From Candidatus Segetimicrobium genomatis (lineage in GTDB: Bacteria; Sysuimicrobiota; Sysuimicrobiia; Sysuimicrobiales; Kaftiobacteriaceae), in NCBI GenBank assembly GCA_005882335.1, contig VBAP01000060.1, positions 850 through 64,849 of the forward strand: 64,000 bases of DNA. Direction: 5' to 3'. Shown here piece after piece: positions 4,508 through 37,939 of the stretch; within the stretch, counting starts at the first letter, position 1; every line of letters begins with the position of its first letter. The notes under the pieces are model-generated. The model ran no database searches. It was not told where the DNA came from and saw only the letters and a list, made by a program, of their open reading frames with translations. The position numbers were made by a program, and so were the translations under genes.

Positions 4508-5695
4508 TCACTCGCGCGTCACGCGGCCAGGCCGCCTCGCGCGGGCCGGTCGGCGCGGCCCGATATCCAGAGTCTGCTCCAAGACGCGGGCGACGACATC
4601 GCAGCCGTTGAAATGCTCCTCGGTGAGCTGGCGTGCGAGCCGGGCGTGACGCTCGTAGTCCGACTCCACGGCGGAAAATGCCTGCACCGCCTCGTCCATG
4701 TTTCTGAAGCGAAAGAGCCCCCCAGCATCAGGAAGGACGCGGCTGTCGCCCGTGTGCTGGACGACGGCCGGCTTGCCGCTGGCCAGGTAGCAGAGGGTCC
4801 GGTCGCTGACCCACGCGTTGGCCAGGGTCATGCATGCCGGCTTCGCGCAGCTGAACTCGCCCCGTGATTGCTGGATGTAGGCCCGGTATTGGTCGGGTGT
4901 CGCGCTCACGTCCCAGGCCTGCCGGACCTGCCACCCCAAGGGCTCCAGACGGGCCCGCCAGTCGTCATAATGCTCGCCCAGACAGATGGCCAGCTCGAGG
5001 CTCGCACAGATCCGGGACGGGAGTTCCTTGTATTCCAGGAACGAGACGTGCTTTTCCTCGTTGATGACCTGTCCCCCAAACTCGAATCGGCTTCCCCACC
5101 AGTGGGTAACCGTCGTATAGGGTGCGGTCGAGTCCACCGAGACTGTCGGCCACGCCGGCAGGAACACCGGCGGCGGCGTGTACAGCCAGCGGAGGCCGCA
5201 GTCGGGGAAACGCGCCGCTGACGTCCCGACGGTCTCGCCAATGGTGAAATAGAGATGATGTGAGGCCACTTGTACGTCGCCCCGGGTCATCCAGATCTGC
5301 AGCAGCCCCGGGTCGGTATCGACGAATGCGGCGCGTCGGAAACGGTTCACCACAGACGCGGGAAGGGAATGCCACAGGTTCAGCAGCAGGTCGGCCTCGG
5401 AGGCCGCGTCGAGATCCATGGCGTGCTCGGTCACGTCGGGCGGAAGGGGCTCGTCCGTCAGCGAGCAGAGCGCGACGGAGTCTGCCAGGCCGTAAGGCTT
5501 CAAGCGTTGCTTGAGCGTGGTAGCCAACTCCCGGGGATCACGCTCGGGATCGCCGGGGTCGATGCCTTCGAGCCAGATGACCCGCCAACCCAATGCCAGC
5601 AGTGACAGCGCCCACTGCAGGTACACCCACAGGTGGCCGCCGCCGTGAGGATACATAATGGTCCGCGCCGCCGCCAGACAGATCGCTGCGCTCAT
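4508..5695 (-). CDS. CgeB-like glycosyltransferase-family protein, paralog C
   Basis: 395 aa, MSAAICLAAARTIMYPHGGGHLWVYLQWAL...AYIQQSRGEFSCAKPACMTLANAWVSDRTLCYLASGKPAVV. It is co-linear with paralog A along most of its length. Confidence 0.5.
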   Translation of the reverse strand: MSAAICLAAARTIMYPHGGGHLWVYLQWALSLLALGWRVIWLEGIDPGDPERDPRELATTLKQRLKPYGLADSVALCSLTDEPLPPDVTEHAMDLDAASEADLLLNLWHSLPASVVNRFRRAAFVDTDPGLLQIWMTRGDVQVASHHLYFTIGETVGTSAARFPDCGLRWLYTPPPVFLPAWPTVSVDSTAPYTTVTHWWGSRFEFGGQVINEEKHVSFLEYKELPSRICASLELAICLGEHYDDWRARLEPLGWQVRQAWDVSATPDQYRAYIQQSRGEFSCAKPACMTLANAWVSDRTLCYLASGKPAVVQHTGDSRVLPDAGGLFRFRNMDEAVQAFSAVESDYERHARLARQLTEEHFNGCDVVARVLEQTLDIGPRRPARARRPGRVTRE

Positions 5696-6765: not shown

Positions 6766-7661
6766 CGCTCACCTGCCGTGGGCATTGTACTCACCGCACC
6801 GGCGCGGCCGGGACCGCTGGCTCTTGTCTCCGCCGGCTCACGCAACGGCTGCGCCCGGGCGGCGCGCTTGGCCGTATCATACAGGTACGACGCCAGATGC
6901 GAGGGCGCGTCAGGGACGCCTTTGAACCCGGGCATGCTGGACATGTCGACGACGTACGGTCTCCCCTCACTCTCAACGATGTCGATGCCGAAGAGGTCGA
7001 TGCCGAACGCCCGGCTGCAGCGCAGGGTGATTTCGCAGAGTTCCCGGGCGGGGATGAACGGTTCCCCATGTTTCTCCGCCTCGGTCCTGGCCGGGAAGAT
7101 TTTCTTGACCCCGAACAGGCGCCCTCCGATCGAGTAGATCTTCCGGTCGCGGCCCTGGGGCGGATGGTAGCGCTGGGCGAAGAGGGGATCCTTACCCGCC
7201 GGCACCGCGGCAAGCTCGCTCAAGGTACGGACGATACGCACCCCAAACCCCTCGGTGCCCCCCACGGGCTTCACGACAAGCGGTCCCCCGTCCAGCAGCG
7301 GTGCCAGCTGGTGCAGATGCGAGGCGACATAGGTCGCAGGCGTGGGCACGCCGGCGGCCTGCAGCAGGCGGGAGGTGATGATCTTGTCGCGCAGCGCCAT
7401 GGTCACCGGGTACGGATTGACGATCGCCGCGCCCTGGGCGTGCAGCACTCCCGCGATGCTCACGGCGGGGCCACTGATCTTCTTCAAGACGTACAGATCG
7501 TGCTCGACCTGGAGGGTGGACAGGTCGACCGCATGATCCCGGGGGTGGATCACCTCGACGATGACGCCCCACTCCGCGAGCGTCCGCATGACCGCCGGCA
7601 TGTGGCTTCTGCTCGGCTGATGGTAGCGCGGCAGCAGGAATCCGATCCGTAGCGGCGTCAT
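6762..7661 (-). CDS. ATP-grasp family ligase (RimK-like fold)
   Basis: 299 aa. Contains LVVKPVGGTEGFGV and DLFGIDIVESEGRPYVVDMSSMPGF, the ATP-grasp hallmarks. Confidence 0.6.
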   Translation of the reverse strand: MTPLRIGFLLPRYHQPSRSHMPAVMRTLAEWGVIVEVIHPRDHAVDLSTLQVEHDLYVLKKISGPAVSIAGVLHAQGAAIVNPYPVTMALRDKIITSRLLQAAGVPTPATYVASHLHQLAPLLDGGPLVVKPVGGTEGFGVRIVRTLSELAAVPAGKDPLFAQRYHPPQGRDRKIYSIGGRLFGVKKIFPARTEAEKHGEPFIPARELCEITLRCSRAFGIDLFGIDIVESEGRPYVVDMSSMPGFKGVPDAPSHLASYLYDTAKRAARAQPLREPAETRASGPGRAGAVSTMPTAGER

Positions 7662-10447
7662 GTCCCCACCGCCTGACGCGGCGCGGCGCCCGGCGCCCAG
7701 CCGAGTTCCTCAAGGGCGCCGTCCAGCTCAATGACGTACGTCTGCACGCTGCGGACAAACGACTGCGCCCAGTCGTTGGCCAGGTTCTGCGCATCCCAGT
7801 ACAAGGCAGACAGCGTTCGACACACCGTCCCGCAGTAGGCGAGCTCCCGCCAAGCCTCCAGGCTTACGTCCGGCCAGCGATCGCGCACCGTCGACCAGTA
7901 GGTCGAGATGTCGGGATTCGCCGACAACCGGTGCGACGGTACGGTGAGCTGGGCCAGGTCCACGGCGGGGACGCCCCAGCCGGCATGCTCCCAGTCGAAG
8001 ACGACCACGGCCGTGTCTCCATCCGCGGAGCGCAGGCGCATGTTCTTGCCGCTGAAATCGCCGTGCACGAGCGTTTGCGGCATGCGGCTGCAGATCGCGT
8101 CCACCCGGCTCCAGTGCGCGGCCAGATCATCGAGACGGGCGCGGATCTCCTCGATGAAGACCACATCGTCTGGCGAGAGCACGGGATTGTCCAGGTGCTG
8201 GTGGATCAGTTCGCGAGTCGCCCGCAACAGGTCCAGATAGCGGCCTGGGCTGCCGTCGGGCAGACGCGCGGTGGCGGCCGCGCCAGCCGCCGAGCTATGC
8301 AGCAGACCGAGCCAGCGGGCGGCCAGGGCGCGGTGTTCCGGTAGGAGGTTGGAGTAGTCGGCGCCGGTCGCCTCTTCCATGAAGAGCCAGGAGTATTCGC
8401 TATCCGGTTCTTCGATGAACCCGTAGTGGTGGAGCGACGAGACCGCGGCGTGGGGGAGAATCTCTTCGTAGATGGCGCGCTCGACCAGGGCGACCGCCTT
8501 GGGGCAGCGCTTGGCGATCACCGGGGCGCCGGCCCACCCCGTCCCCTCGAGCCGGTAGACTTGATTCTTCCTCCGGCGCACCTTCAAGGGCGTGATCCGC
8601 AGCGGCTCAGCGTCCGGATACAGCCGGCACCAGGCCACCACTGCGGGATGGCGCATGAGACTCACCCGCCGTTCGGCGACCGGGGTGGGCGCAGCCGGAA
8701 TTCCTGCCGCGGCGGGAGAGAGGGTCGTGCTCGACGCAAGCCGTCCGTGCTCCAGCACGATCAGGGCGGTGCAGCGCTCGAGCAGTTGCGGCCGGTGTGT
8801 GATCAAGATGACGGTGCGGCCGCGCATCAGCCGCCGGATCGCGTCGACGATCGCCGCCTCCGCCTCCTGATCGACGGCGCTGGTCGGCTCGTCCAGGATG
8901 AGCACCGGGCTGTCTTTCAAGAACGCGCGGGCGATGGCGATGCGCTGGCGCTGCCCGCCGGAGAGCTGGACCCCACGCTCGCCCACCTGGGTCTGGTAGC
9001 CCTGGGGGAATCGAGTGATGAACTCGTGCGCGTTGGCCGCCTGGGCGGCTGCGATCACCTCGCGCTCGCTCGCACCCGGCCTGGCATACGCGATGTTTTC
9101 GGCGATGCTGACTGAGAAGAGCACGGGATCTTGCGGCACCACGGCGAACTGCTGGCGCAGATCGTCCAGCCGGTAGTCGCGGACATCGACACCGTCCAGC
9201 AGAATCTCCCCTTCCGTCGGGTCGTAGAATCGTGTGAGCACGCTGATCAGCGTGCTCTTGCCCGCGCCGGACGCGCCCGCGATCCCCAGGCGGGTGCCGG
9301 GCTCGATGGTGAACGAGATGTCGTGCAGCACGCGGCGATCGGGGCTGTAAGCGAAGGACACGTTGCGAAAGGCGATGGCCCCGGCGGCCCGGGTGAGTGG
9401 CCGGGCGTCGGGCCGCTCGACGACATCCGGCGGCTGGTCGAGCACCGCGAACGCCCGCTCGGCGGCGACCAGGTTGGCCTGAAGGCTGGCGGCTTTCCGG
9501 CTGATGGTCTTCAAGGGAGCGTACAGCTGGTTCAGATAGCCCATGACCATGAGGAGCTGGCCTAGGGTGAGCGCATTCGCGCGCACATGGCTGAGACCAA
9601 TGAACAGGACGGCGGCCGTCCCCGCGGCGGTCGTCAGGCCGACGAAGACGTTGAACTCTCCTTCCATGAATGCCTGGCGCATCCGTGCCCGCATCACATC
9701 GCCGCCGCGCCGGAGGTACCGCTGCTCCTCCCGCGCCTCCTGGCCAAAGGCCTTCACGATGCGCAGGGCGCCCAGCACTTCCTGGACGATCCCAAGCGCG
9801 GAGCTGTCGAGCTTCTTGGCTTCCCGCGACTGGCGGCGCAGGCGTCTGCGGAAGAACCGGGCGATCACGATCAATGGCGGTGAAATCGCGATGGCGATCA
9901 GCGCCAGTTGCCAGTCGATGCGGGCCATGACGTAAATCATCCCGACCAGCGTGATGCTGGAGCTGACAAACGGGATGGCGCTATCGGTCAGGACCTGCTG
10001 GATGTCGGGAACGTCGTGCTGGATCCGGTACACGGAGTCCGCGGTGCCCTTGCTGTCGTGGTAGGAGAGTGAGATCCGCTGGAGGTGGCGGAACATGTGC
10101 GTGCGGAAGTCCAAGATCATCTTTTCCTTGACGTAGTTGCCCAGGAGTGCTGCGGCGAGTTGCTGCGCCTGACCCAGCAACGTGATGGCGGCCAGGAGGC
10201 CAACGACAAACAGCAGCAAGGCAGGTGGTGAGCCCGTCACAGCCGGCGGCAGCCACCTGTCGAGCGGGCGCGGCAGGGGATGGGAGCCAATCAGGCTGTC
10301 CACGGCGATCTTCAGCGGTAGGGGGGCGAGCAGGGCAATGGGTGACGCCAGCAGGTTCAAGGTAAACATCCCCAGCATGTGGAGCCAGTAGGCCCGCGTC
10401 TGGCGGAGCACCCGGCGGAACAATACAAGATCGGTATACGTGGCCAT
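7658..10447 (-). CDS. ABC exporter (type I, TMD-NBD, MsbA/PglK-like) fused to a C-terminal APH/CotS-like kinase domain
   Basis: The N-terminal 250 aa of the 1182-aa ORF is low-complexity and overlaps the upstream gene, so it is rejected. The true start is MATYTDLVLFRR (ATG at about 10445-10447). A 6-TM domain is followed by Walker A GASGAGKST, signature LSGGQRQR and Walker B ILDEPTS. About 330 aa further on is HGDFSGKNMRL...VVFDWEHAGWG. Confidence 0.75.
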   Translation of the reverse strand: MATYTDLVLFRRVLRQTRAYWLHMLGMFTLNLLASPIALLAPLPLKIAVDSLIGSHPLPRPLDRWLPPAVTGSPPALLLFVVGLLAAITLLGQAQQLAAALLGNYVKEKMILDFRTHMFRHLQRISLSYHDSKGTADSVYRIQHDVPDIQQVLTDSAIPFVSSSITLVGMIYVMARIDWQLALIAIAISPPLIVIARFFRRRLRRQSREAKKLDSSALGIVQEVLGALRIVKAFGQEAREEQRYLRRGGDVMRARMRQAFMEGEFNVFVGLTTAAGTAAVLFIGLSHVRANALTLGQLLMVMGYLNQLYAPLKTISRKAASLQANLVAAERAFAVLDQPPDVVERPDARPLTRAAGAIAFRNVSFAYSPDRRVLHDISFTIEPGTRLGIAGASGAGKSTLISVLTRFYDPTEGEILLDGVDVRDYRLDDLRQQFAVVPQDPVLFSVSIAENIAYARPGASEREVIAAAQAANAHEFITRFPQGYQTQVGERGVQLSGGQRQRIAIARAFLKDSPVLILDEPTSAVDQEAEAAIVDAIRRLMRGRTVILITHRPQLLERCTALIVLEHGRLASSTTLSPAAAGIPAAPTPVAERRVSLMRHPAVVAWCRLYPDAEPLRITPLKVRRRKNQVYRLEGTGWAGAPVIAKRCPKAVALVERAIYEEILPHAAVSSLHHYGFIEEPDSEYSWLFMEEATGADYSNLLPEHRALAARWLGLLHSSAAGAAATARLPDGSPGRYLDLLRATRELIHQHLDNPVLSPDDVVFIEEIRARLDDLAAHWSRVDAICSRMPQTLVHGDFSGKNMRLRSADGDTAVVVFDWEHAGWGVPAVDLAQLTVPSHRLSANPDISTYWSTVRDRWPDVSLEAWRELAYCGTVCRTLSALYWDAQNLANDWAQSFVRSVQTYVIELDGALEELGWAPGAAPRQAVGT

Positions 10448-10451
10448 GGCG

Positions 10452-13091
10452 CTACCGCTTTTCCCTGTCGACGGCCTGCCGGATCGCCGCCACCGCATCA
10501 GCGCAATCGATGGACGTGCGTAGTGCGAGAAGGAGGGTGATCGCGCCGAGCACAACGGCGACCGCCGGCGCCCTGTCCTCGATCGCTTCAGCGGCCAACC
10601 CGGCGAAGGCGAGCGTCGCCGCCACCCCCGCCGGGGACCAGCGCGGCCACCAGCGATACCGGGCCAGCTGCACGCCCGCGCCGGTGTCTTCGACGGCCGC
10701 GAGCAGCCTGGCCGCGCCGAGTGTGCCGACGCAGGCTTCCAGATCCCAGCGGTCGTAGTCGCCGCCACGGCGCACGTTGGCCCCGGCCGCCTTGAGGCTG
10801 GCCTCGATGCGTTGGAGCTTGACATCGGGATCCTCCCAGCGCTCGCTCCAGACGGCAACGCGCCCGGGCAGCGGCAGCGCGATGCCGAACAGACGGTGCC
10901 GCCGCGCCCCGTTCCAAGTTGGCGGAGACGAGTCGTATTGCCGCAGCGTCGGACTGGTGACTCGGAGCGGAGCGTGTCGGCGCCATGGCGCGAGGCCGTA
11001 GTGCAGGCGGCCGGAGAGACGCGCCAGGGGCTGGAGCAGATACAACGACGCTGTGAGCATCCACCGCTTGGTTCGGCCGGCACGCGACGGAGGGACGTCG
11101 GGAAGGACAGCCCGCGCCGCGGCCAGGCAGGCCTGCGTGACCACCACAAGCACAGAGAGCGCAAACGGCAGCAGGGCGACCAGCAGCGGCCGCCACAACG
11201 CGCCAAGCGCTGAGACCATGCCGAGGAGCAGGATGACCAGGTACCATTCCGGGATCGCCGGCATCAACCACAGCGTGGCCGGCGATCGCTCGTACAGCGA
11301 TTGGTAGGGCGCGCTGCCCCAGACCCCATGGTAGATTCGTCTCAGCGGGCGAAGAAAGGATGCGGGGTTGTTGCCGTACACCCAGCCGGACCAGGTCACA
11401 TGGCCCGCGCCGTTATATCGATGGGGCCACTTTCGTGCCAGCAGCGCCTCGGCTTTGCCATACTCGCGCTGTTGCCGCCAGTACGCGCGAATGGAGTTGC
11501 GGCGGTGGTGCCAGACGACAGCCGCTGGAGAGAATCCAATCGTCCAGCCGCGCTCCCGGAGCCGCCAGCAGAGGTCGACATCGTCGCCAGCGATGCGAAA
11601 CTGTGGATCGAATCCGCCGACCCCCCGCAGGCGCTCGGTGCGGAAGGCCATGTTGCACCCCGGGATGTGCTCCGCCTCTCGATCCGAGGTGAGCACATGA
11701 ACCGGCCCGCCCGGGGCGTTCGCCACGCAGCCGGCGATGAAACCGTCGCCCGGCGGCGCGATGTTCGGCCCGCCGACCGCGGCGTGTGCCGTGGTGAGAA
11801 AGCTCGCGGCGAGATACTTGAGCCAGTGGGGATCGGGGTACGCGTCGTCGTCGATGTACGCGACGATTTCCCCAGTCGCCGCCTCCAGACCGACGTCGCG
11901 CGCGGCGGCCAGGCCGTGCTGCTCGGTGCTGATGACGCGTACGCCAAACTCGCTGGCGATGGCCGCCGTGCCGTCGGTCGAACCGTCGTCGACGACGATC
12001 ACCTCGACACTCGGATAGTCCTGCGTTCGCAGGCCCGCCAAGCAGTCGCGAATTGTGCGCGCGCCGTTGTGGGTGCAGACGATCACCGAGATGCGCGGCC
12101 ATGGCGCATGGCCTGGGAACGGAAGCTCGGTGAACACGCGCCTCACCGCGCCCAGCGCCGGTTTTGGTGTACGGTCACGACGCGTCAGGCCGAATGCCCA
12201 GTTGTCGACCTCGGCGCCGCCCCGGAACCACTCGTCGGTCCAGGCAAAGACGAACCCTCCGGCGCAGCCCGAGCCAAAGACCGAGCGGATCTGCCAGTCC
12301 AGCGTGCGCGCCTGCTCGGGCTCACCGTGCCGCAGGCTGTCCAGCCCGATCTCGCTCATCACCAGCGGGCGGTCGCCCGCGATGGTGTGCAGGCGGGCCA
12401 GGTATGCCTCAAAGCGTTCTTGGGTTTCCAGATAGACGTTGAAGCTGACCAGGTCCAGGAACGGGAGCTGCAGATACTCGGCGGTGGGGTAGTTCACGTA
12501 GGTGACGAGTCCGTCGGGATCTTCCGCCTTGACGGCCCGGAATAACCGCTCCAGGTACCGTTCCACCGGGCCGGGCCCCAGCCAGCGCACGATCGAGGCG
12601 GGTACCTCATTGCCCAGGGCGTAGCACAGGAGCGCCGGGTGGCCGGCGATGGTCCGCACTTTTTCGCGGAGCAGATCCTCGATGTCACCCATTGGCTTCT
12701 TGCGATCGATCAAAAAGCCCAGATATTGCTCCGCGGAGAGCCCCACCATGACGCGCAGGTCGTGCCGCGCCGCCGCGTCCAGCAGGGCCGTGGGGGGCGT
12801 GGTGTGCGGAATGCGCACGGCGTTCACGCCTGCCTCCGCCATCTGCGCAAAGTCGCGCTCGATGGCGTCTGGGTCATGGTATTCTTGACCTGCGGCATTG
12901 GGACGAAACGCCCCGTAGGTCACACCGCGCACGAAAAGCTTGCTGTCGCCGGCAAAGATGAACTTGCCCCGCACCTGCGGCCGGACCAGTACCGGAACGC
13001 CAGGCGGACTATGGCGGGGGATGACCGGGGCGATCGTCTGCACGGTTCGCACCACGGGCGCGGACGAGCTGGACGGAGTGGTGATCGACAC
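10452..13091 (-). CDS. Bifunctional glycoside hydrolase (TIM-barrel) / family-2 glycosyltransferase membrane protein
   Basis: 879 aa. The N-terminus (VRGVTYGAF...GVNAVRI...ALGNEVP) resembles GH5/GH2-type TIM-barrel hydrolases. The central part (ISVIVCTHNGARTIRDCL...VIVVDDGSTDGT...YIDDDAYPD) is a GT2 domain. The C-terminal region of about 250 aa has several hydrophobic spans. Confidence 0.6.
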   Translation of the reverse strand: MSITTPSSSSAPVVRTVQTIAPVIPRHSPPGVPVLVRPQVRGKFIFAGDSKLFVRGVTYGAFRPNAAGQEYHDPDAIERDFAQMAEAGVNAVRIPHTTPPTALLDAAARHDLRVMVGLSAEQYLGFLIDRKKPMGDIEDLLREKVRTIAGHPALLCYALGNEVPASIVRWLGPGPVERYLERLFRAVKAEDPDGLVTYVNYPTAEYLQLPFLDLVSFNVYLETQERFEAYLARLHTIAGDRPLVMSEIGLDSLRHGEPEQARTLDWQIRSVFGSGCAGGFVFAWTDEWFRGGAEVDNWAFGLTRRDRTPKPALGAVRRVFTELPFPGHAPWPRISVIVCTHNGARTIRDCLAGLRTQDYPSVEVIVVDDGSTDGTAAIASEFGVRVISTEQHGLAAARDVGLEAATGEIVAYIDDDAYPDPHWLKYLAASFLTTAHAAVGGPNIAPPGDGFIAGCVANAPGGPVHVLTSDREAEHIPGCNMAFRTERLRGVGGFDPQFRIAGDDVDLCWRLRERGWTIGFSPAAVVWHHRRNSIRAYWRQQREYGKAEALLARKWPHRYNGAGHVTWSGWVYGNNPASFLRPLRRIYHGVWGSAPYQSLYERSPATLWLMPAIPEWYLVILLLGMVSALGALWRPLLVALLPFALSVLVVVTQACLAAARAVLPDVPPSRAGRTKRWMLTASLYLLQPLARLSGRLHYGLAPWRRHAPLRVTSPTLRQYDSSPPTWNGARRHRLFGIALPLPGRVAVWSERWEDPDVKLQRIEASLKAAGANVRRGGDYDRWDLEACVGTLGAARLLAAVEDTGAGVQLARYRWWPRWSPAGVAATLAFAGLAAEAIEDRAPAVAVVLGAITLLLALRTSIDCADAVAAIRQAVDREKR

Positions 13092-13100
13092 GCCGCGATC

Positions 13101-14084
13101 CTACGACGTGACCAGATTTTGCTTCGGCGCCATCCTCACGAACCATGCGATCGTCCGCCGCAGTCCCTCCCGCAGCGGCACGGCGGGGGACCACCCCAAC
13201 ACGGCCTGGGCTTTCCCAATGTCCGGTCGCCGGCGCGCCGGATCGTCCTGGGGCAGGGGCAGGTGGACAATATTCGGCGTCGTTCCGACCAGCGAGGCGA
13301 CGATATCGGCCAATTCGAGGAGCGTCATCTCCTCGGGGTTGCCCAAATTGATGACCTCGCCGGCTAGGCCGTCATACGTGGCGAACCGGTAGATCCCCTC
13401 GACGAGATCGTCGACAAAACAAAAACTCCGCGTCTGCCGCCCGTCGCCATGCACCGGTAGGGGAACGCCAGACAGCGCGTGGGTGATGAACTGGGGGATG
13501 ACGCGGCCGTCGTCGGCGCGCATCCGCGGGCCATACGTGTTGAAGATCCTCAGGATGCGTGTATCCAGCGTGTTCGCGCGATGATAGGCCATCGTCAGGG
13601 CCTCGGCGAAGCGCTTCGCCTCGTCATATACACTGCGCGGACCAATCGGGTTGACATGGCCCCAGTACGATTCGGGCTGGGGATGGATTTGGGGGTCGCC
13701 GTACACCTCGCTGGTGGAGGCCAGCACGTATCGCGCCCCGCGCGCCCTGGCCAGCTCGAGGGTGAGCAAGGTGCCCACGGCATCCACTTTGAGCGTGTCG
13801 ATGGGATATCGCAGGTAGTCTTTGGGGCTGGCGGGCGAGGCAAAGTGCAGGACGAGATCGACGGGATCGTCAACGACGAACGGCTTGGTGACGTCATGCT
13901 CGATGAACCGGAACCCGCCGTCCCCGTCCAGGTGAGTCAGGTTCCCGGCCGTCCCCGTCAGCAGGTTGTCCACGCCCACGACGCGCCAGCGGTGCGCCAG
14001 GAAATGATCGCAGAGGTGCGAACCGAGAAATCCGGCCGCTCCCGTGATCAACACGGTCGCAGGAGTTGCGCGGTGCGCGTTCAT
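13101..14084 (-). CDS. uxs: UDP-glucuronate decarboxylase (UDP-xylose synthase)
   Basis: 327 aa. Contains [14 protein letters not shown] and [20 protein letters not shown]...YDEAKR, canonical for UXS/ArnA-C-type SDRs of about 320 aa. Confidence 0.85.
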
Positions 14085-15424
14085 GTGCGCTCGCGTCGCG
14101 GTTCGGGGTGGAGCGACACGTCCCCGCGGCCCAGGCTGTAGTACTCAAAGCCCGCGGCCTGCATCTGCGACGGCTCGAAGAGATTCCTGCCGTCCACGAC
14201 CACGGGCGTTCGCATCAACGTCCGGATTCGGCCGAAATCGAGAGACCGGAACTCATTCCAGTCTGTGAGGATCACGAGGGCGTGGGCATCGCGGGCCGCA
14301 TCATAGGCCGACGCCACATACGAAAGGCGGTCATCGGGCGGATGGAACCGCTCGAAGTTTCGCACCGCCGCGGGATCATAGACGCGCAGAATGGCTCCGG
14401 TGCTGTGCAGCCGGGGGATCACCCCGAGGCTGGGCGCGCCCCGGATGTCGTCGGTATCGGGCTTGAACGACACACCCAGTACGCCGATGACCTTCTGCGG
14501 CAGCACCCACAGCGCGCGCTCGACCTTCCCCAGCAACCTGTCGATGCGGGCGACGTTGATGCGCTCCACCTCTTTCAGCATGCCGACGTCGACGCCGCTG
14601 CTCCCGGCTACCCTGATCAGGGCGCTGACGTCCTTGGGCAGGCAGGAACCGCCGAAGCCCAGGCCCGCGTTGAGAAAGTCGCGGCCGATGCGCGGGTCGA
14701 GGCCAATACCCTTGGCCACGGTGGTGACGTCTACATCGAGTTTCTCGCAGAGGTCCGACACCAGGTTGATGAAGGAGATCTTCGTGGCGAGAAAGGCGTT
14801 GGCCGCCTGCTTGATCAGTTCGGCCGTCGTCACGCTCGTGACGATGATCGGGCAGTCGAAGCTGGACTGGTAGAGGTCGAGGAGCAGCGACCGGGCCCGC
14901 TCGCTGTCCGCGCCGATGACGATCCGGTCCGGATGCAGAAAGTCGCGGACGGCGGAACCCTCCCGCAGAAACTCCGGATTGCTGGCGATGTCAAACTCCC
15001 GTTCCCGTCCGGCCAGCCGGCGGATCGTCCAGTCGATCCAGTGTGCCGTGCGGGCGGGAACGGTGCTCTTCTCCACGATCAGCTTGTAGCCATCCAGCAT
15101 CGACGCGATGGTGCGGGCGACTTCCTCGACCTGGGACAGGTCGGCGTGCCCATCGCTTCGGGGCGGGGTTCCCACGCAGACGAAGATCATGTCGGATGCG
15201 CACACGGCATCCTCGGCTTTCGTGGTGAAGCTGAGGCGGTCGGCCTCCAGGTTGGAGGTCAGCAACTCCTCCAGCCCGGGTTCATGAATGGTCGGCACGC
15301 CATCCGACAGGCGTGCAACGATGTCTGGATTCTTGTCGATGGCCGTGACGGTGTGCCCCAACTGCGCGAGGCACACCGACGTGACCAGTCCCGCGTATCC
15401 TGTGCCGAAGAGGCCAAGTCTCAT
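14081..15424 (-). CDS. ugd: UDP-glucose 6-dehydrogenase
   Basis: [20 protein letters not shown]...GGSCLPKD. The ATG start (15422-15424) is preferred over the GTG used by the ORF track. A GAGGAG ribosome-binding site sits just upstream. Confidence 0.9.
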
Positions 15425-15503
15425 ACTACTCCTCACTTATACCCCTGGAAGCGATGGAGTCCGGTGGGGAAATCCCCGGTCGATTTTGGGTAGGTTATGC
15501 ATT

Positions 15504-15528
15504 TGGGCTCATGAATATCTCAGCCTCT
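15504..15528. promoter_or_regulatory. Dyad-symmetric intergenic motif copy 1 (TGGGCTCATG-N-TCAGCCTC), 80 bp upstream of the ugd operon start
   Basis: Shares TGGGCTCATG plus TAT/TC/AGCCTCT with the copies at 25689 and 31390. Confidence 0.35.
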
Positions 15529-15697
15529 GGCGGGAAAACGCCCCGATCATCGCTCTATCAAACGGCTGACCATCCCCGGGCTCGTGTCTGGTCCAGGCGC
15601 ACAGGCCATTGAGGTCACCACCCGGACGGAACATGTCTCGAGCACTGCGAGTCGCCGTGTTCCTATGATTGCCGGCAGCTGAACGGCGTCGCGCGCG

Positions 15698-16186
15698 TCA
15701 GTTCGCGCCTGCAGCCCACGACAGATGCCGGATGGCGTCGGCCAGCCTTGTGACCGCGGTGGCCACTTCCGCCGCCTGGTAGCTACGGCCGGCCCGGTAA
15801 TGCTGCCGTGCCAGCGAGAGATACCGGATGGCCAGGGCGTAGAGCATCTGCGAGTCTCCACTCAAGCGGGCGTGATCGCCTTCTGCCAATAGCCGCTCCT
15901 GAGCGATCAGCAACTCCCGCGCTGCCCGCTCGGCGTCGAAGTCGGCCGAATCCAGTGATGGTGTCGCGGGTGTTGCGGGCGTCGCAGGCGTCCCGGGTGT
16001 CTCAGGCGCCGCGGGTGTTGCGGGTGTTGCGGGCGTGCCGGGTGTCCCAGGATGCCCCGGCCGCACGGGATGCTCGGGAGGCGATGGAGCCGTCGGCGCG
16101 TCGCGGGGAGGAGCCGCGAATCCCGCAGGGCGCAACGTTCCCGTCACCACCAGCGTCACGATCGCGAGGATGAGTACCGGTTTCAT
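15698..16186 (-). CDS. Secreted Pro/Thr-rich repeat protein (signal peptide, PGTPATPATP repeats, helical C-terminal domain)
   Basis: 162 aa. MKPVLILAIVTLVVTG signal peptide, then a PGTPGTPATPATPAAPETPGTPATPATPATP repeat. Confidence 0.6.
   Translation of the reverse strand: MKPVLILAIVTLVVTGTLRPAGFAAPPRDAPTAPSPPEHPVRPGHPGTPGTPATPATPAAPETPGTPATPATPATPSLDSADFDAERAARELLIAQERLLAEGDHARLSGDSQMLYALAIRYLSLARQHYRAGRSYQAAEVATAVTRLADAIRHLSWAAGAN
15950..16060. repeat. Imperfect tandem 9/18-nt repeats (GGTGTTGCGGGCGTCGCAGGCGTCCCG...) encoding the PGTPATP tract
   Basis: Visible direct repeats inside the CDS 15698-16186. Confidence 0.6.
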
Positions 16187-16305
16187 CCCTGTCCTCGTTT
16201 ACGAAGGCAGCGTGTTCCGTATCGTCTACCGTCTGGTGAGCGCAGCGACGAGAGATAGCCTAGACGGCCTGTCTGACATGCGGGTGATTGGAGATGACGG
16301 AATGA

Positions 16306-17691
16306 TTACAACCGCACGGCGGGCACGGTCAAGGTCAGCGAGGTGCCATGCCCAGGGATGCTTTCAGCCGACAGGCGGCCGCCGTGAGACTCCACGATGC
16401 CGCGTGCAATGGCCAGGCCAAGCCCGAATCCGTCGCCCGTCGGCGGATAGCGATAGAATCGGTCGAAGATCCGCGGCAGGCGCTCGGGGGCAATGCCCAC
16501 GCCATCGTCGCGCACCGTGATCCGTCCGCCTCCCACCTCGATCGTGATGGTCCCGGTCGGCGCGGTATGACGGATGGCGTTGTCCACCAGGTTGCCCAGC
16601 GCCTCGCGGATCTGGTTCGGGTCCACGTCCGCCGTCGCATTGTCGCCACGCACCAGCTGCAATTGTCTGGCGCCGGCCAGCACGCGAAAGTCATCGAGCA
16701 CACGCGCCGCGATGTCGCCGAGGTTCACCTCTTCCCGCTGCAACGGGGCGCCCGCATCGAGCGCAGAGAGCGTGATGAGGCGGCGCAGCACATGATCCAG
16801 GCGGCTCACCTGCTCGCGCATGGTGGCATACGACGTGAGGACCTTGGCCGGATCTGCAATGACCATCCGCTCCAGCAGCTCCAGGTGACCGCTGAGCACG
16901 GTGAGCGGTGTCTTCAACTGGTGCGCCGCATCGGTCACAAACCGCTGCTGCGCGGTGAACGCGGCTTCGAGTTTGTGAACCATCTCGTCGAATGAGGTGG
17001 CGAGCCGTCCGACCTCGTCTCGGCCGTGCGGCAATTCAGACCGCCGGTGGAGCTCCCCCCGGGCGATCGCGCAACAGGTCGCCTCGAGTTTCTCCAGGGG
17101 GACCGCAAGGTAGCCGCCGAACAGCAGCGCCAGCACTCCACTGGCCAGCAGCGTCGCCATCGCCGCGCCAATCAGAATGAGGCGGAGCCGGCCCAGCGAG
17201 CGATCCACGTCTGTCAAGGGCGTGCTGAGCTGGATCACACCGACGAGGCCGGATGCGGGCGAAAGCGACCGCAGCGGGATGTACATGACGAGTTCACGTC
17301 CACCCTCGACACGGTGGACGTATGTCGCCAGGCTGTCTCCGCTGAGGATCCGCCGGACGGCGTCATCCCGAACGGGTGCCGGGTCCAGGTCCTCCGGCAG
17401 AATCTTGCCCGAGGCCACCACCCTGCCGTCGGCATCCAGCACGAGCGCTGCGACGTCGTGCCTCGTCAGGTCCAGCGCCAGATCGCGGCCCAGCGCGGGA
17501 AGCGGCAGCCGCATCCTGGCGAGGCGATTCATGTACACGTCGGCCGTCGGAGAGAAGTGTTCCCGCAACGTCTGGGCGCTGTGATCCAGCAGGAACTGGT
17601 CGAGGTTCCGTTCGTAGGCCACGCTCAACACCAGGTCCAACAGGCCGACCGTGGCCAGCACGACGATGGCAATCTTCCACCGGAATCTCAC
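16306..17691 (-). CDS. Sensor histidine kinase (TM, HAMP, HisKA, HATPase_c)
   Basis: 461 aa. H-box AAHQLKTPLTVLSGHLELL, N-box GNLVDNAIRHT, G-boxes DDGVGI and GGFGLGLAIA. Confidence 0.85.
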   Translation of the reverse strand: MRFRWKIAIVVLATVGLLDLVLSVAYERNLDQFLLDHSAQTLREHFSPTADVYMNRLARMRLPLPALGRDLALDLTRHDVAALVLDADGRVVASGKILPEDLDPAPVRDDAVRRILSGDSLATYVHRVEGGRELVMYIPLRSLSPASGLVGVIQLSTPLTDVDRSLGRLRLILIGAAMATLLASGVLALLFGGYLAVPLEKLEATCCAIARGELHRRSELPHGRDEVGRLATSFDEMVHKLEAAFTAQQRFVTDAAHQLKTPLTVLSGHLELLERMVIADPAKVLTSYATMREQVSRLDHVLRRLITLSALDAGAPLQREEVNLGDIAARVLDDFRVLAGARQLQLVRGDNATADVDPNQIREALGNLVDNAIRHTAPTGTITIEVGGGRITVRDDGVGIAPERLPRIFDRFYRYPPTGDGFGLGLAIARGIVESHGGRLSAESIPGHGTSLTLTVPAVRL

Positions 17692-18344
17692 GGTATGCGC
17701 AGCGTATAGCCGATGCCACGGACCGTCGCGATGATGGTGTGTGCATGGTCACCGAGGTTGTCACGCAGGCGTCCCACCGTTACTTCAACCACGTTGCTCT
17801 CTCCCTCGAAATCGACACCCCAGACGCGATTGATCAACTCGTCCCGGCTGAACACCCGCCCGGGACGGCGCGTGAGCGCGGCCAGCAGATCGAACTGACG
17901 CGCGGAGAGTTCGAGCGGCCGGTCGTGCCACCAGGCCCTGCGCTGGTCGGGATCCAGGCACAACGCCCCGGCTCGGATCTGGCCTCCTCCCCGCCCCGTA
18001 CGCTTGAGTACCGCGTGCACGCGGGCTGACAGTTCTTGGAAACTGAAGGGCTTGGTGACGTAGTCGTCCGCGCCGGCCTCGAAGCCCGCGACTTTATCCC
18101 GGAGTTCGCCGCGGGCGGTGAGCATGATGATGGGCAGGTCGTACGAGCCGCGGATCAATCGGGCCAGTTCGAGCCCGTCAGCGTCCGGCAGCATCAGGTC
18201 GAGGAGGACCAGATCGTAGGTCTCATCGAGCGCATCCAGGCTGCCCTGCAGGCTGAGGCATACTTCATCTCCTTCGTGCTGCAGGGCCGCCTGCAGGAGT
18301 TCAGCGATGGTGCGGTCGTCTTCGATGACGAGGATCTTCGCCAT
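17688..18344 (-). CDS. OmpR/PhoB-family response regulator
   Basis: True start MAKILVIEDD (ATG 18342-18344). REC domain plus winged-helix (RVFSRDELINRVWG...GIGYTL). Overlaps the histidine-kinase start by 4 bp. Confidence 0.85.
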   Translation of the reverse strand: MAKILVIEDDRTIAELLQAALQHEGDEVCLSLQGSLDALDETYDLVLLDLMLPDADGLELARLIRGSYDLPIIMLTARGELRDKVAGFEAGADDYVTKPFSFQELSARVHAVLKRTGRGGGQIRAGALCLDPDQRRAWWHDRPLELSARQFDLLAALTRRPGRVFSRDELINRVWGVDFEGESNVVEVTVGRLRDNLGDHAHTIIATVRGIGYTLRIP

Positions 18345-18359
18345 GGCAGCGGGATCTGG

Positions 18360-18458
18360 CCAGAAGATCAGCGGCGGGCGCGAGGCGAGTGTTCCTGGGG
18401 CCGGTCGGCCTTGCGGCTGAAGGTGACCAGTCCTGCGCACCCTGCGCCGAAGATGCCA
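18360..18458 (-). pseudogene. Truncated 5' fragment of a ugd paralog (MKLGIFGAGCAGLVTFS...) with its upstream -10-like box
   Basis: Nucleotides 18395-18480 are about 80-85% identical to 15375-15445, the ugd 5' end plus TTAT(TT)ATACCC. The reading frame stops after 32 codons. Confidence 0.55.
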
Positions 18459-18670
18459 AGTTTCATGTCAGTTATTTATACCCGTCAGAACACCGGAGAT
18501 GATCGTTCGAGTGAGGACGAAGCGCCTCCCAAAAACCCTGTAGATCGATTGGAGGAAATGCCTTGACATGGCCCTCAAACGAGGGATGGGCATGATGACT
18601 GACCGACAGAGACAGATGCCCGACGTGTGAATCGGCACAGCGAGCGCGCGCGTGATCATGGCCCGAGCGG

Positions 18671-19330
18671 CTATTTGATAAATCCCTTCCGGATGGCGTG
18701 GGCAACTGCCTGGGTGCGATTCCGGACGTTGAGTTTCTGCAAAATGTTGCGGATGTGCGTCTTGACCGTGCCCTCGGAGACCGTGAGCTTGCTCGCGATC
18801 TGGCGATCTGTACTGCCGTTGGTGAGTTCCACAAGGACCTCGAGTTCTCTCGCGGTGAGGCCCTCGGGTGATGGCCCGAGCCGGGCCGGCTTCCCGTCTG
18901 CCGGATGGCCGACCCGCTCAATGAGCTTGCGGGTGATTTCGGGGTGAAAGAATACCTGCCCCTGGCGCACCGAATTCAGGGCCGTGACGAGATTGGCAGC
19001 CGGGATGTTTTTCAAAATGTACCCGGCGGCCCCCGCCTCGATGGCCGCGAGAGCCTTCGCATCGTCGAGGCGCTCGGTCATGATGATGATTTCGACCCCA
19101 GGCATCGCCTGCTTAATGGCCCGCGTCGCTTCGATGCCGCCCGCCTTGGGGAGGTCCTGGTCCATCAAGACCACCGCGGGATCCAGGCGACGCGTGAGCT
19201 GGACCGCATCTTCTCCGTTGGTCGCCTCTCCCACAATTTCTATGTCGGCGGTGGCTTGACGCAGCGCAGATTTGACCCCTTCGAGGAACAATCCCCAATC
19301 GTCCGCCAGCAGGACCTTGATGATCGGCAT
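18671..19330 (-). CDS. LuxR/FixJ-family response regulator (REC + HTH)
   Basis: 219 aa. MPIIKVLLADD...LTARELEVLVELTNGSTDRQIASKLTVSEGTVKTHIRNILQKL. Confidence 0.85.
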   Translation of the reverse strand: MPIIKVLLADDWGLFLEGVKSALRQATADIEIVGEATNGEDAVQLTRRLDPAVVLMDQDLPKAGGIEATRAIKQAMPGVEIIIMTERLDDAKALAAIEAGAAGYILKNIPAANLVTALNSVRQGQVFFHPEITRKLIERVGHPADGKPARLGPSPEGLTARELEVLVELTNGSTDRQIASKLTVSEGTVKTHIRNILQKLNVRNRTQAVAHAIRKGFIK

Positions 19331-19714
19331 GAGTCCGTCGCTCCCCCCAAAGCTTCCAAATTAGGTACAAGGACCAAACGCAGATCCTCAGGGGGCCCGG
19401 CGGGCCACCTGCTCAGGGGGGAAATGCTAGGGATGTCACTGCGGCGCGACGACCGGATAGCGCAGTGTACGTCCTGTTAGATATAGGTCTCCCAAGTTCC
19501 TCTATCGTCCGGTATGGGCTTTTGCATAAATCCAACCTGGCTCCCGGGAGCATGCCCGACACCCAGGCTAGGTCCAGCGTGACGCCGGGAATCCCGGGGA
19601 GGGGGGGTTCCGAGGCCAGCACAGGGGCTGTGGGGGCGGGTCGCCCGGATCCTGTCGCCCGCGCCGCGTGGGTGGCGGAGCGCGTCCAGCAGACCGAGCG
19701 TGAAGGTGCGTGCG

Positions 19715-36592: not shown

Positions 36593-37939
36593 GTGAGTCA
36601 GGTGCTTGAGCAAGCTGACACATCTGTGCAGTATGCTGCGCTACTCGACGCGCGGATTCGACAGCGGACGGCGGGCATCACCGTCGTCGGCCAGGGATAC
36701 GTGGGTCTGCCGCTGGCCGTCGAGCTGGCGCTGGCAGGTTTTCGCGTGACGGGTCTGGACACAGATGGGGGGAGGGTCACCGGACTCAACGCGGGTCGTT
36801 CGCATTCCCCGGACATCGACGAGGACGAACTGGCCGCGCTGGTGCAGGAACACCGGTACACGGCGACGACGGACTCCGGCGTGCTGGCGGACAGCGACGT
36901 CGTGATCATCTGTGTGCCGACGCCATTGCGCAAGTCAAAAGATCCCGACATCTCCTACGTCGTCGCCGCGGCCACCGAGGCCGCGGCCAAGTTCCGGCCG
37001 GGACAGCTGGTGATCCTGGAGAGCACCACCTACCCGGGAACGACGGAAGAAGTTCTCCTCCCTCTCTTTGCGGCGCGCGGCGCGACCGTGGGGGAAAACT
37101 TCTTCCTCACCTTCTCGCCGGAGCGCATCGATCCGGGGAACCGTACCTTCCGGCTCAGGGACATCACCAAGGTGGTGGGGGGAGTGACGCCGGCCTGCTC
37201 GCGCCTCGCGGCGCTGCTCTACGAGCAGATCGTCGACAAGGTCGTGGAGGTGTCGAGTCCCAAAGTGGCTGAGCTGGCCAAGTTGTACGAAAACGTGTTC
37301 AGAAACGTCAACATCGCCCTGGCCAACGAGTTTGCCTTGATGTGCCGCCGCCTGGACGTCCGCAGCCGTGAGGTGATCGAGGCGGCCGCCACCAAGCCGT
37401 TCGGCTTCCTGCCGTTCTATCCCGGTCCGGGCATCGGCGGGCATTGCATCCCAATCGATCCCAGCTACCTGGCCTGGAAGATGCGGCTCAACGGGTATGA
37501 GGCGCGCTTTATCCACCTCGCCGATGAGGTCAACCGCGCCATGCCGGCGTATGTGGTGGAGCTGGTCGCTGAAGGACTCAATCGCCGCCAGCGTGCGCTC
37601 AACGGCGCGCGGATCCTGGCGCTGGGAGTGTCGTATAAGCGCGGTGTGGGCGACACGCGGGAGTCGCCCGCCCTGGAGGTCCTCGCCCAATTAAGGCACC
37701 GGGGCGCGGAGATTGCGTACGCAGACCCATATGTGCCTGCGGTGGCCATCGATGGGGTTCTGGTGAACGCGGTCGAGCTCACCGACGAGCAGCTCAGCGC
37801 CGCCGATTGCGTCGTGATCCTGACAGACCACCCCGGCGTCAACTATCGGCGGGTCGTGGAACTGGCCCGCCTGGTCGTAGATACACGGAACGCCACGTGG
37901 GGAGTTCCCGTCCCCGCGGAGCGCGTCATTGTGTTGTAG
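36593..37939 (+). CDS. UDP-N-acetyl-D-mannosamine (or UDP-GlcNAc) 6-dehydrogenase, WecC/WbpA-like
   Basis: ITVVGQGYVGLPLAVELA...GPGIGGHCIPID nucleotide-sugar dehydrogenase motifs. Adjacent to wecB. Confidence 0.7.
   Translation: MSQVLEQADTSVQYAALLDARIRQRTAGITVVGQGYVGLPLAVELALAGFRVTGLDTDGGRVTGLNAGRSHSPDIDEDELAALVQEHRYTATTDSGVLADSDVVIICVPTPLRKSKDPDISYVVAAATEAAAKFRPGQLVILESTTYPGTTEEVLLPLFAARGATVGENFFLTFSPERIDPGNRTFRLRDITKVVGGVTPACSRLAALLYEQIVDKVVEVSSPKVAELAKLYENVFRNVNIALANEFALMCRRLDVRSREVIEAAATKPFGFLPFYPGPGIGGHCIPIDPSYLAWKMRLNGYEARFIHLADEVNRAMPAYVVELVAEGLNRRQRALNGARILALGVSYKRGVGDTRESPALEVLAQLRHRGAEIAYADPYVPAVAIDGVLVNAVELTDEQLSAADCVVILTDHPGVNYRRVVELARLVVDTRNATWGVPVPAERVIVL

Follow-up and report, generated by a model that had tools for sequence, protein, structure and literature searches.

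A decaying, 3'-truncated ugd pseudogene and a putative shared promoter element upstream of an OmpR-family two-component operon in Candidatus Segetimicrobium genomatis

Introduction

How did the start of a sugar-nucleotide gene come to stand a second time in front of the operon of a two-component system (TCS)? This question is raised by a stretch of 64 kb (66% G+C; hereafter the window, to which all coordinates without a locus code refer) from contig VBAP01000060.1 of Candidatus Segetimicrobium genomatis, an uncultivated soil bacterium. The gene concerned is ugd, encoding UDP-glucose 6-dehydrogenase, and the operon is that of an OmpR-family response regulator (RR) and a sensor histidine kinase (HK). 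In the direction of transcription the locus comprises a gene for a LuxR/NarL-type response regulator, a 326-nt spacer, the RR and HK genes, the hyp gene coding for a 162-aa protein, a 273-nt spacer, ugd, uxs (for a UDP-glucuronate decarboxylase-like protein) and a gene for a GH2-GT2 fusion glycosyltransferase (GT). The repeat, the short box in front of each of its copies and all the relevant genes lie on the - strand. An initial annotation of this DNA had described the repeat and had offered two explanations for it, namely the scar of a rearrangement that removed a second ugd, or a transplanted promoter.

Results and Discussion

The 5' end of ugd is present twice in the locus

The intact, source-type ugd gene (14081-15424) codes for 447 aa and carries three UDPG_MGDP_dh Pfam domains (PF03721, PF00984 and PF03720; E 4e-59, 7e-34 and 1e-31) in one open frame; its orthologues in the relatives are 86-89% identical. 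The first 44 nt of the gene, corresponding to codons 1-15 (15381-15424), can be aligned without gaps to positions 18423-18466, with 38 of the 44 nucleotides identical (86%). The best other match to either 44-mer on both strands of the window reaches 25/44, so that the identity stays far above background in a computational alignment, and the binomial probability of at least 38 matches in 44, multiplied by 128,000 positions, is about 8e-11.

Upstream of each copy we found the same 8-mer, GGGTATAA, which occurs exactly twice in the 64 kb, at 15437-15444 (box 1) and 18476-18483 (box 2), both times on the - strand. By chance 0.14 occurrences would be expected, and none of 100 shuffles reached two. 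Box 1 is located 12 nt upstream of the ugd ATG and is followed by GTGAGGAG, while box 2, a candidate -10-like promoter element of the RR-HK operon, is located 9 nt upstream of the ATG of the second copy. The two box-to-ATG spacers differ both in length and in sequence (GTGAGGAGTAGT, 12 nt, at ugd versus ATAACTGAC, 9 nt, at the copy), and consequently the match from the box to GTCAC amounts to only about 78%, with a 3-nt gap. The homology proposed by the initial annotation (about 85 nt at 80-85%) is therefore real, as is the shared box, but the identity given for it is too high when counted from the box. Likewise, a ribosome-binding site adjoins the box at ugd (GAGGAG), whereas the copy has ATAACTGAC instead.

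As a whole, the gene end forms a direct repeat (15381-15444 and 18423-18483), whose members are 3042 nt apart in the same orientation. Specifically, positions 18424-18483 correspond to 15382-15444. The adjacent positions 18402-18422 have no counterpart adjoining 15381 and match ugd 123 nt deeper, at 15237-15264 (codons about 54-63; 75% identical to 18402-18429; offset 3165 = 3042 + 123). The second copy thus spans 18402-18483. The interval first proposed for it, 18395-18480, was nearly right, except that its ugd counterpart is split. Two parts can be distinguished within the coding portion: part 1 (18424-18466) holds codons 1-14 plus one base, up to a deletion junction, and part 2 (18402-18423) is homologous to ugd codons about 56-63 and lies distal to a strain-group-specific deletion of 123 nt. 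Compared with the three-domain architecture of the dehydrogenase, the copy at 18402-18466 retains only codons 1-15 and about 56-63. The GxGxxG NAD-binding motif, which reads GAGCAG in the copy versus GTGYAG in ugd, hence indicates ancestry only, because the remainder of the domain is missing.

A longer copy in sibling strains identifies the repeat as a pseudogene

Relatives of the window were fetched by means of the kinase and regulator proteins, and their loci are coded L001 and so forth; the comparison includes a related soil metagenome-assembled genome labelled 'Bacillati bacterium ANGP1'. The same short copy is found in five independent assemblies, i.e., the window, L001, L002, L050 and L051, the other four of which come from other samples, so that the arrangement is not an assembly artefact. 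Two further loci, L052 and L058, whose RR is 99% identical to that of the window at the protein level (98% at the DNA level for L052), carry a longer copy. In these strains the box and ATG are the same, and the next 190 nt or so can be aligned to ugd as far as codon 62, with no gap from the box onwards. The L052 copy is identical to the window ugd at 136 of 204 positions (67%; P about 4e-31), compared with 62% for the ugd of other lineages, and a tblastn comparison with ugd yields 47% identity over residues 1-51 (E 1.6e-9).

Apart from the loss of exactly 123 nt (L052 294-416), a stretch that aligns with ugd codons 16-56, the window copy corresponds to that of L052. This deletion is common to the five assemblies with the short copy, relative to L052/L058, and its junction falls after window position 18424, between imperfect TGG(T/C)C repeats. 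Since the undeleted copy bridges both parts, these represent true colinear homology broken by the deletion. Neither form encodes a dehydrogenase any longer: the L052 copy has an in-frame stop at codon 22 (a frame of 21 codons), and the window copy has suffered the 123-nt internal deletion and a change of frame. In addition, the mismatches of the L052 copy to the ugd consensus are distributed over codon positions 1/2/3 as 15/25/29, lacking the third-position bias seen in a functional pair of ugd orthologues (6/1/20).

All together, colinear homology, truncation at ugd codon about 63, disabling changes, the neutral substitution pattern and length variation between strains lead us to conclude that 18402-18483 is a non-functional, 3'-truncated ugd pseudogene, still shrinking by deletions, with a copy of the box in front. 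The longer sibling copy and the neutral pattern bear out the idea of a rearrangement scar. The removal of a second complete ugd is not supported, as the related lineages examined keep at most about 62 ugd codons at this site, and the comparison with syntenic relatives, which might have carried an intact second ugd, found none among the related loci examined.

The box persists in a sister clade that has no ugd remnant

In a tree of 4-fold sites the window lineage lies outside a sister clade, (L003,(L057,(L053/L054, L008/L055/L056))), whose loci are at Jukes-Cantor (JC) 4-fold-site distances of 0.32-0.40 from the window. The RR of these loci is 84-88% identical to that of the window and, where the contigs reach, the gene order is the same (LuxR-type regulator, RR, HK, hyp, ugd, uxs). 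No ugd coding sequence is present upstream of the sister-clade RR gene, nor does any of these loci have a second intact ugd. The copy thus exists in a long form (L052/L058) and a short form (window/L001/L002/L050/L051), and is absent from L003, L053, L054, L057, L008, L055 and L056.

On the other hand, the box GGGTATAA is found in L003, L053, L054 and L057, where about 65-70 nt separate it from the RR ATG and a leader of about 55 nt follows it immediately. This leader is homologous to window positions 18345-18401, the native leader of the RR gene (about 57 nt), which is homologous across all lineages. In an alignment of six sequences (window, L052, L003, L053, L054 and L057), the box is the sole invariant block upstream of the RR leader. 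L008, L055 and L056 are without box and leader, having lost 84-87 nt between two GATGGC repeats in comparison with L053/L057. The deletion sites are at L008 7300-7347 and L055/L056 about 4950-5000, versus L053 3664-3792, and in the three deleted loci the RR ATG directly follows unrelated upstream sequence, with no visible Shine-Dalgarno sequence.

The box upstream of ugd is kept in L004, L008, L049, L051 and L053-L056 but not in L003, where GGGGGGCGTCA has replaced it (L003 4200-4231). The hyp-ugd spacer of L003 measures only 72 nt, and ugd may be co-transcribed with the upstream genes there. For L049, whose kinase is 96% identical, the contig begins inside the RR gene. Throughout the related loci of both clades, GGGTATAA occurs solely upstream of RR and of ugd. 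It is absent from more distant RR-HK loci, where an ArsB-type gene, not ugd, comes next, and also from more distant ugd-uxs-GT-ABC clusters, where the genes upstream are not the same, the conserved leader is a different one and no TCS is adjacent. A clean pre-insertion state, with the LuxR-type regulator gene next to ugd, was looked for among the relatives without success; outside the clade, the nearest ugd clusters are preceded by different genes and lie on short contigs. In distant ugd-uxs-GT clusters, two copies of a TTCCGGAA palindrome (...TTCCGGAAATCA...TTTCCGGAACCCTCAG...) are located upstream of ugd (L130 960-1010, L131 80-125 and L132 255-300). This long palindrome-bearing upstream region is conserved between those loci, possibly as the operator of a different regulator.

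The box as a putative -10-like element

The -10 element recognised by sigma-70 has the consensus TATAAT, and a -10 element placed a short distance before the ATG is the geometry of leaderless or near-leaderless mRNAs. The hexamers TATAAG (15436-15441) and TATAAA (18475-18480) each match this consensus at five of six positions and are preceded by GGG. The distance from hexamer to ATG is 8 nt in most ugd orthologues and in the pseudogene open reading frame (ORF), and 11 nt in the window ugd. Unlike a canonical sigma-70 promoter, there is no match to a -35 element, and the conserved prefix is GGG rather than a TGn extension. With two copies in 64 kb, the box is not a general promoter consensus in this DNA.

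The invariance of the box amid diverged or deleted flanks argues for selection. Taking this invariance together with the 5/6 match and the spacing to the ATG, we infer that the box may be a -10-like element of two promoters, one for ugd-uxs-GT and the other for RR-HK. Box 2 would start the RR-HK transcript near 18470, with a leader of about 125 nt containing a junk 32-codon ORF, while box 1 would drive ugd-uxs-GT with a very short leader or none. The regulator operon and the sugar-nucleotide cluster would then have one cis element in common.

A more far-reaching suggestion, which we put forward tentatively and consider somewhat doubtful, is that the duplicated ugd element was exapted, wiring the TCS operon and the ugd-uxs-glycosyltransferase cluster to GGGTATAA and to a single factor reading it, perhaps the OmpR-type regulator itself or an alternative sigma factor, in a feedback circuit retained through the history of the clade while the coding sequence duplicated along with it decayed. 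If true, sensor, regulator and target pathway would be switched on together, by a circuit created through promoter duplication.

About 20-35 nt upstream of the ugd box we also observed an inverted repeat, GGGG(G)ATTTCCCC(C), at 15465-15478 (L004 about 1995-2008). It is conserved in ugd orthologues and unrecognisable at the pseudogene copy, and may act as an operator or form a hairpin. On the + strand a T-run comes next to it, which makes it score as terminator-like.

Origin and age of the copy

The layout and its variants among strains are probably best explained by one old duplicative rearrangement, which would have put the promoter box and 5' end of ugd before RR-HK, the coding part being a neutral relic and the box serving as a shared -10-like element. 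A single event in the clade ancestor would have produced the arrangement [box-ugd 5' part]-RR-HK-hyp-[box-ugd], with a direct repeat flanking about 3 kb and a copied piece consisting of the box and ugd codons 1 to about 63. Two routes are conceivable: a Campbell-type single-crossover insertion, and a tandem duplication with its ends at ugd codon about 63 and the RR leader, followed by loss of the redundant copy. What was left of the coding part would later have been deleted, completely in the sister clade and to the extent of 123 nt in the strain group of the window, and a further deletion of 84-87 nt would have taken box and leader in one sub-lineage. Two deletions of this eroding kind, the 123-nt and the 84-87-nt one, are directly visible. 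Of the mechanism of the rearrangement itself no trace is preserved: the sequences at the junctions have diverged too far, and neither vector-like nor mobile-element remnants are present.

The age of the copy was estimated from 204 sites, at which the copy shows 53 private changes and three ugd lineages show 2, 9 and 8. The private divergence of the copy is JC 0.32, or 0.42 when taken from codon positions 1+2 against the ugd consensus, and the total 4-fold distance separating the window lineage from its sister clade amounts to 0.32-0.36, or about 0.17 (0.16-0.18) per lineage. The window and L052 are 94% identical in the remnant and 96% identical at 4-fold sites, and, judging by this, the rate of change of non-coding sequence may here be about 1.5 times that of 4-fold sites. 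Informative site patterns tie the copy to no single ugd lineage (4, 3, 1). Even allowing for faster non-coding evolution, the copy seems to have arisen no later than the divergence of the window lineage from the sister clade, although a dating from 204 sites and from 4-fold sites of about 87% G+C is rough and indicative only.

This roughness is one of several points that weigh against the reconstruction given above. With the window lineage as sister to all the rest, an ancestral copy lost once and a copy gained once in the window lineage are equally parsimonious. No recombinase or other trace of a mechanism was detected by domain search in the insert, which holds only RR, HK and the 162-aa repeat protein. 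Upstream of the box, similarity between the two sites is not significant for the window copy, with z 3-5 for some other pairs, and given this weakness we do not claim a duplication of the whole promoter. As to the function of the box, a sigma-70 consensus scan of 15300-19500 found no promoter-like site at either box, since no -35 element is recognisable. The box has been lost upstream of RR in L008/L055/L056 and upstream of ugd in L003, which shows it to be dispensable in some backgrounds. Finally, neither the spacer that separates the LuxR-type gene from RR nor that between hyp and ugd showed a terminator-like site on the - strand, the only terminator-like hairpins being on the + strand, so that read-through transcription could supply both RR-HK and ugd.

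Other explanations were weighed against the same data. An unlikely one is a lineage-specific ectopic copy, in which about 190 nt of ugd 5' sequence was put downstream of a pre-existing RR box in the window lineage only, through gene conversion or template switching, with the shared box as the anchor at one end and CYCAG microhomology at the other. It would agree with the confinement of the fragment to strains whose RR is at least 99% identical to that of the window, with a possible distal microhomology (sister box-TT-CTCAGG-leader, window box...CCCCAGG-leader, ugd CCTCAGC), with the slightly closer resemblance of the fragment to the window's own ugd (67%, against 62% for other lineages) and with a count of events on the tree equal to that of the ancestral model. 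However, it offers no reason why two unrelated promoters should share an 8-mer otherwise absent from the window and the related loci. Moreover, the private divergence of the fragment (JC 0.32-0.42) is about twice the per-lineage 4-fold distance of 0.16-0.18, and the informative sites do not group the fragment with the window's ugd (4 vs 3 and 1). It is rather improbable that the fragment is what remains of a once complete second ugd upstream of RR, cut back from the 3' side to codon about 63, as the initial annotation had proposed. Deletions are indeed active in this intergenic region, as the 123-nt and 84-87-nt losses attest, yet no examined lineage keeps more than about 62 codons, both strain groups have the identical 3' boundary beside the RR leader, and the leader bears no residual similarity to any part of ugd. 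Furthermore, the related loci are without an intact close paralogue, the sole other family member in the window (~36.7 kb) being 30% identical. For chance resemblance, convergence on GxGxxG or a chimeric metagenome assembly the probability is negligible, and we rejected them: although the matched codons encode an NAD-binding glycine motif common to many genes, the other Rossmann genes of the window give at most 25/44 at the DNA level, the L052 homology runs for about 190 nt, beyond the motif, and the arrangement recurs in the five independent assemblies.

A further alternative, which we judge very improbable, assigns the segment a function as a leader, either as a short ORF or as a leader RNA (leaderless upstream ORF, attenuator) controlling RR-HK translation. 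The initial annotation had correctly noted a truncated ugd-like frame with a stop after 32 codons, which we located at 18368-18466 on the - strand; it reads MKLGIFGAGCAGLVTFSRKADRPQEHSPRARR followed by the stop and is created by the pseudogene. Its ATG comes close after TATAAA, with the 8-nt spacing that suits a leaderless transcript, it ends 23 nt before the RR ATG, and in the minimum-energy fold of the putative leader, GGCAUCUUCG within the ORF is base-paired to CGAAGAUCC at the start of RR. Against this, the peptide is not conserved, the frame having 21 codons in L052 versus 32 in the window and differing from residue 11 onwards, and it is absent from the sister clade; in L001 the ORF is not called as a gene. 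The stability of the fold does not exceed that of shuffled sequences (z -1.3, 20/200), and an Rfam scan of 15300-18800 at E up to 1 matched no known riboswitch or leader. Among the relatives, therefore, neither the peptide nor an RNA structure is conserved as in a leader peptide, and the coding remnant is without function. The converse possibility that the RR leader is itself decayed ugd was also rejected, as its local alignment to ugd was matched by 420 of 1000 and 128 of 200 shuffles.

Comparison with known systems

A similar configuration is known from the e14 prophage of E. coli K-12, which is inserted between the intact icd and a divergent fragment pseudogene, icdC, in direct orientation (PMC13626634). 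In that case the duplicated part is the 3' end of icd, the element has its own integrase, and excision by recombination between the repeats is still possible (PMC13626634). As in icd/icdC-e14, the locus described here shows an inserted block with a working ugd on one side and a diverged short ugd fragment on the other. Unlike e14, it is the 5' end of the gene that is duplicated, together with a promoter-like box, and the RR-HK-hyp insert is without a recombinase. Since the ugd repeats are only 86% identical over 44 nt, excision is unlikely here, again unlike e14.

Campbell-type insertion-duplication, and tandem duplication with loss of one copy, are general mechanisms. Both predict the layout observed, that is, a truncated 5' copy with promoter, the inserted genes and the complete gene with promoter. 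The locus is a new example of a familiar genome scar, a product of ordinary genome evolution and the 5'-end counterpart of icd/icdC. Though small, the case is resolved unusually well, and no long-standing question hinges on it. Its strain variants capture three stages of erosion, from about 190 nt to 65 nt to the box alone or nothing, while the 8-nt box, where present, is unchanged. If the box is a working promoter element, a rearrangement can set a regulator operon under the signal of a neighbouring biosynthetic cluster.

In enterobacteria, the OmpR-family TCS PmrA/PmrB controls ugd/pmrE and the arn operon (PMC4244539). The present locus is similar in that an OmpR-family TCS is linked to ugd and to a UDP-glucuronate-decarboxylating enzyme, in a context of envelope polysaccharide modification. 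It differs in that the host is an uncultivated soil bacterium and the downstream genes are uxs and GH2-GT2, not arn. The likeness is one of analogy rather than of demonstrated orthology, and by this analogy co-regulation of the TCS and ugd is plausible.

Regulator start and neighbouring genes

The RR gene (17688-18344) codes for 218 aa with Response_reg and Trans_reg_C domains. Its start is fixed at 18344 by orthologues beginning MAKI[LF]VIEDD. The longest ORF, from a GTG at 18440, would wrongly add 32 residues overlapping the pseudogene. For annotation, then, 18344 should be taken as the RR start rather than this GTG, and the 32-codon ORF should not count as a gene. No Shine-Dalgarno-like sequence precedes the RR ATG (18345-18367 and orthologous positions) in any lineage.

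The HK gene (16306-17691; 461 aa; HAMP, HisKA and HATPase_c domains) overlaps the RR stop by 4 nt. The LuxR/NarL-type response regulator gene (18671-19330; Response_reg and GerE domains) is the upstream neighbour in every close relative. The clade-specific hyp gene between HK and ugd (15698-16186) encodes a protein of 162 aa with an N-terminal hydrophobic segment and (A/G/E)TP tripeptide repeats, for which no Pfam match was found. The tripeptides are encoded by 9-nt tandem repeats at 15951-16076, whose number varies among lineages (window, L003, L004, L008, L053 and L049), giving products of between about 154 and 189 aa; good conservation across lineages is seen in the hydrophobic segment and in the last 80 residues. 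We considered RR-HK-hyp as a conserved three-gene module and rejected it, because the small protein encoded after the kinase gene in distant loci is unrelated to hyp, and only RR-HK is shared.

A second, distant member of the UDP-glucose/GDP-mannose dehydrogenase family is located at about 36689-37024 on the + strand, with ~30% identity to ugd residues 7-120; the ugd fragment does not derive from it.

Downstream of ugd, uxs (13101-14084) encodes a short-chain dehydrogenase/reductase with Epimerase/GDP_Man_Dehyd domains and overlaps the ugd stop. It is followed by the fusion glycosyltransferase gene (10452-13091), in which a GH2 TIM-barrel is joined to GT2. The ugd-uxs-GT synteny was found in the distant loci L130-L132 too. 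Further downstream, an ABC transporter (membrane and ATPase domains) is fused to an APH-type kinase domain (7658-11206, - strand); the same fusion is present in the distant ugd cluster L130 (6208-9003), and its two parts are encoded by separate genes in L131.

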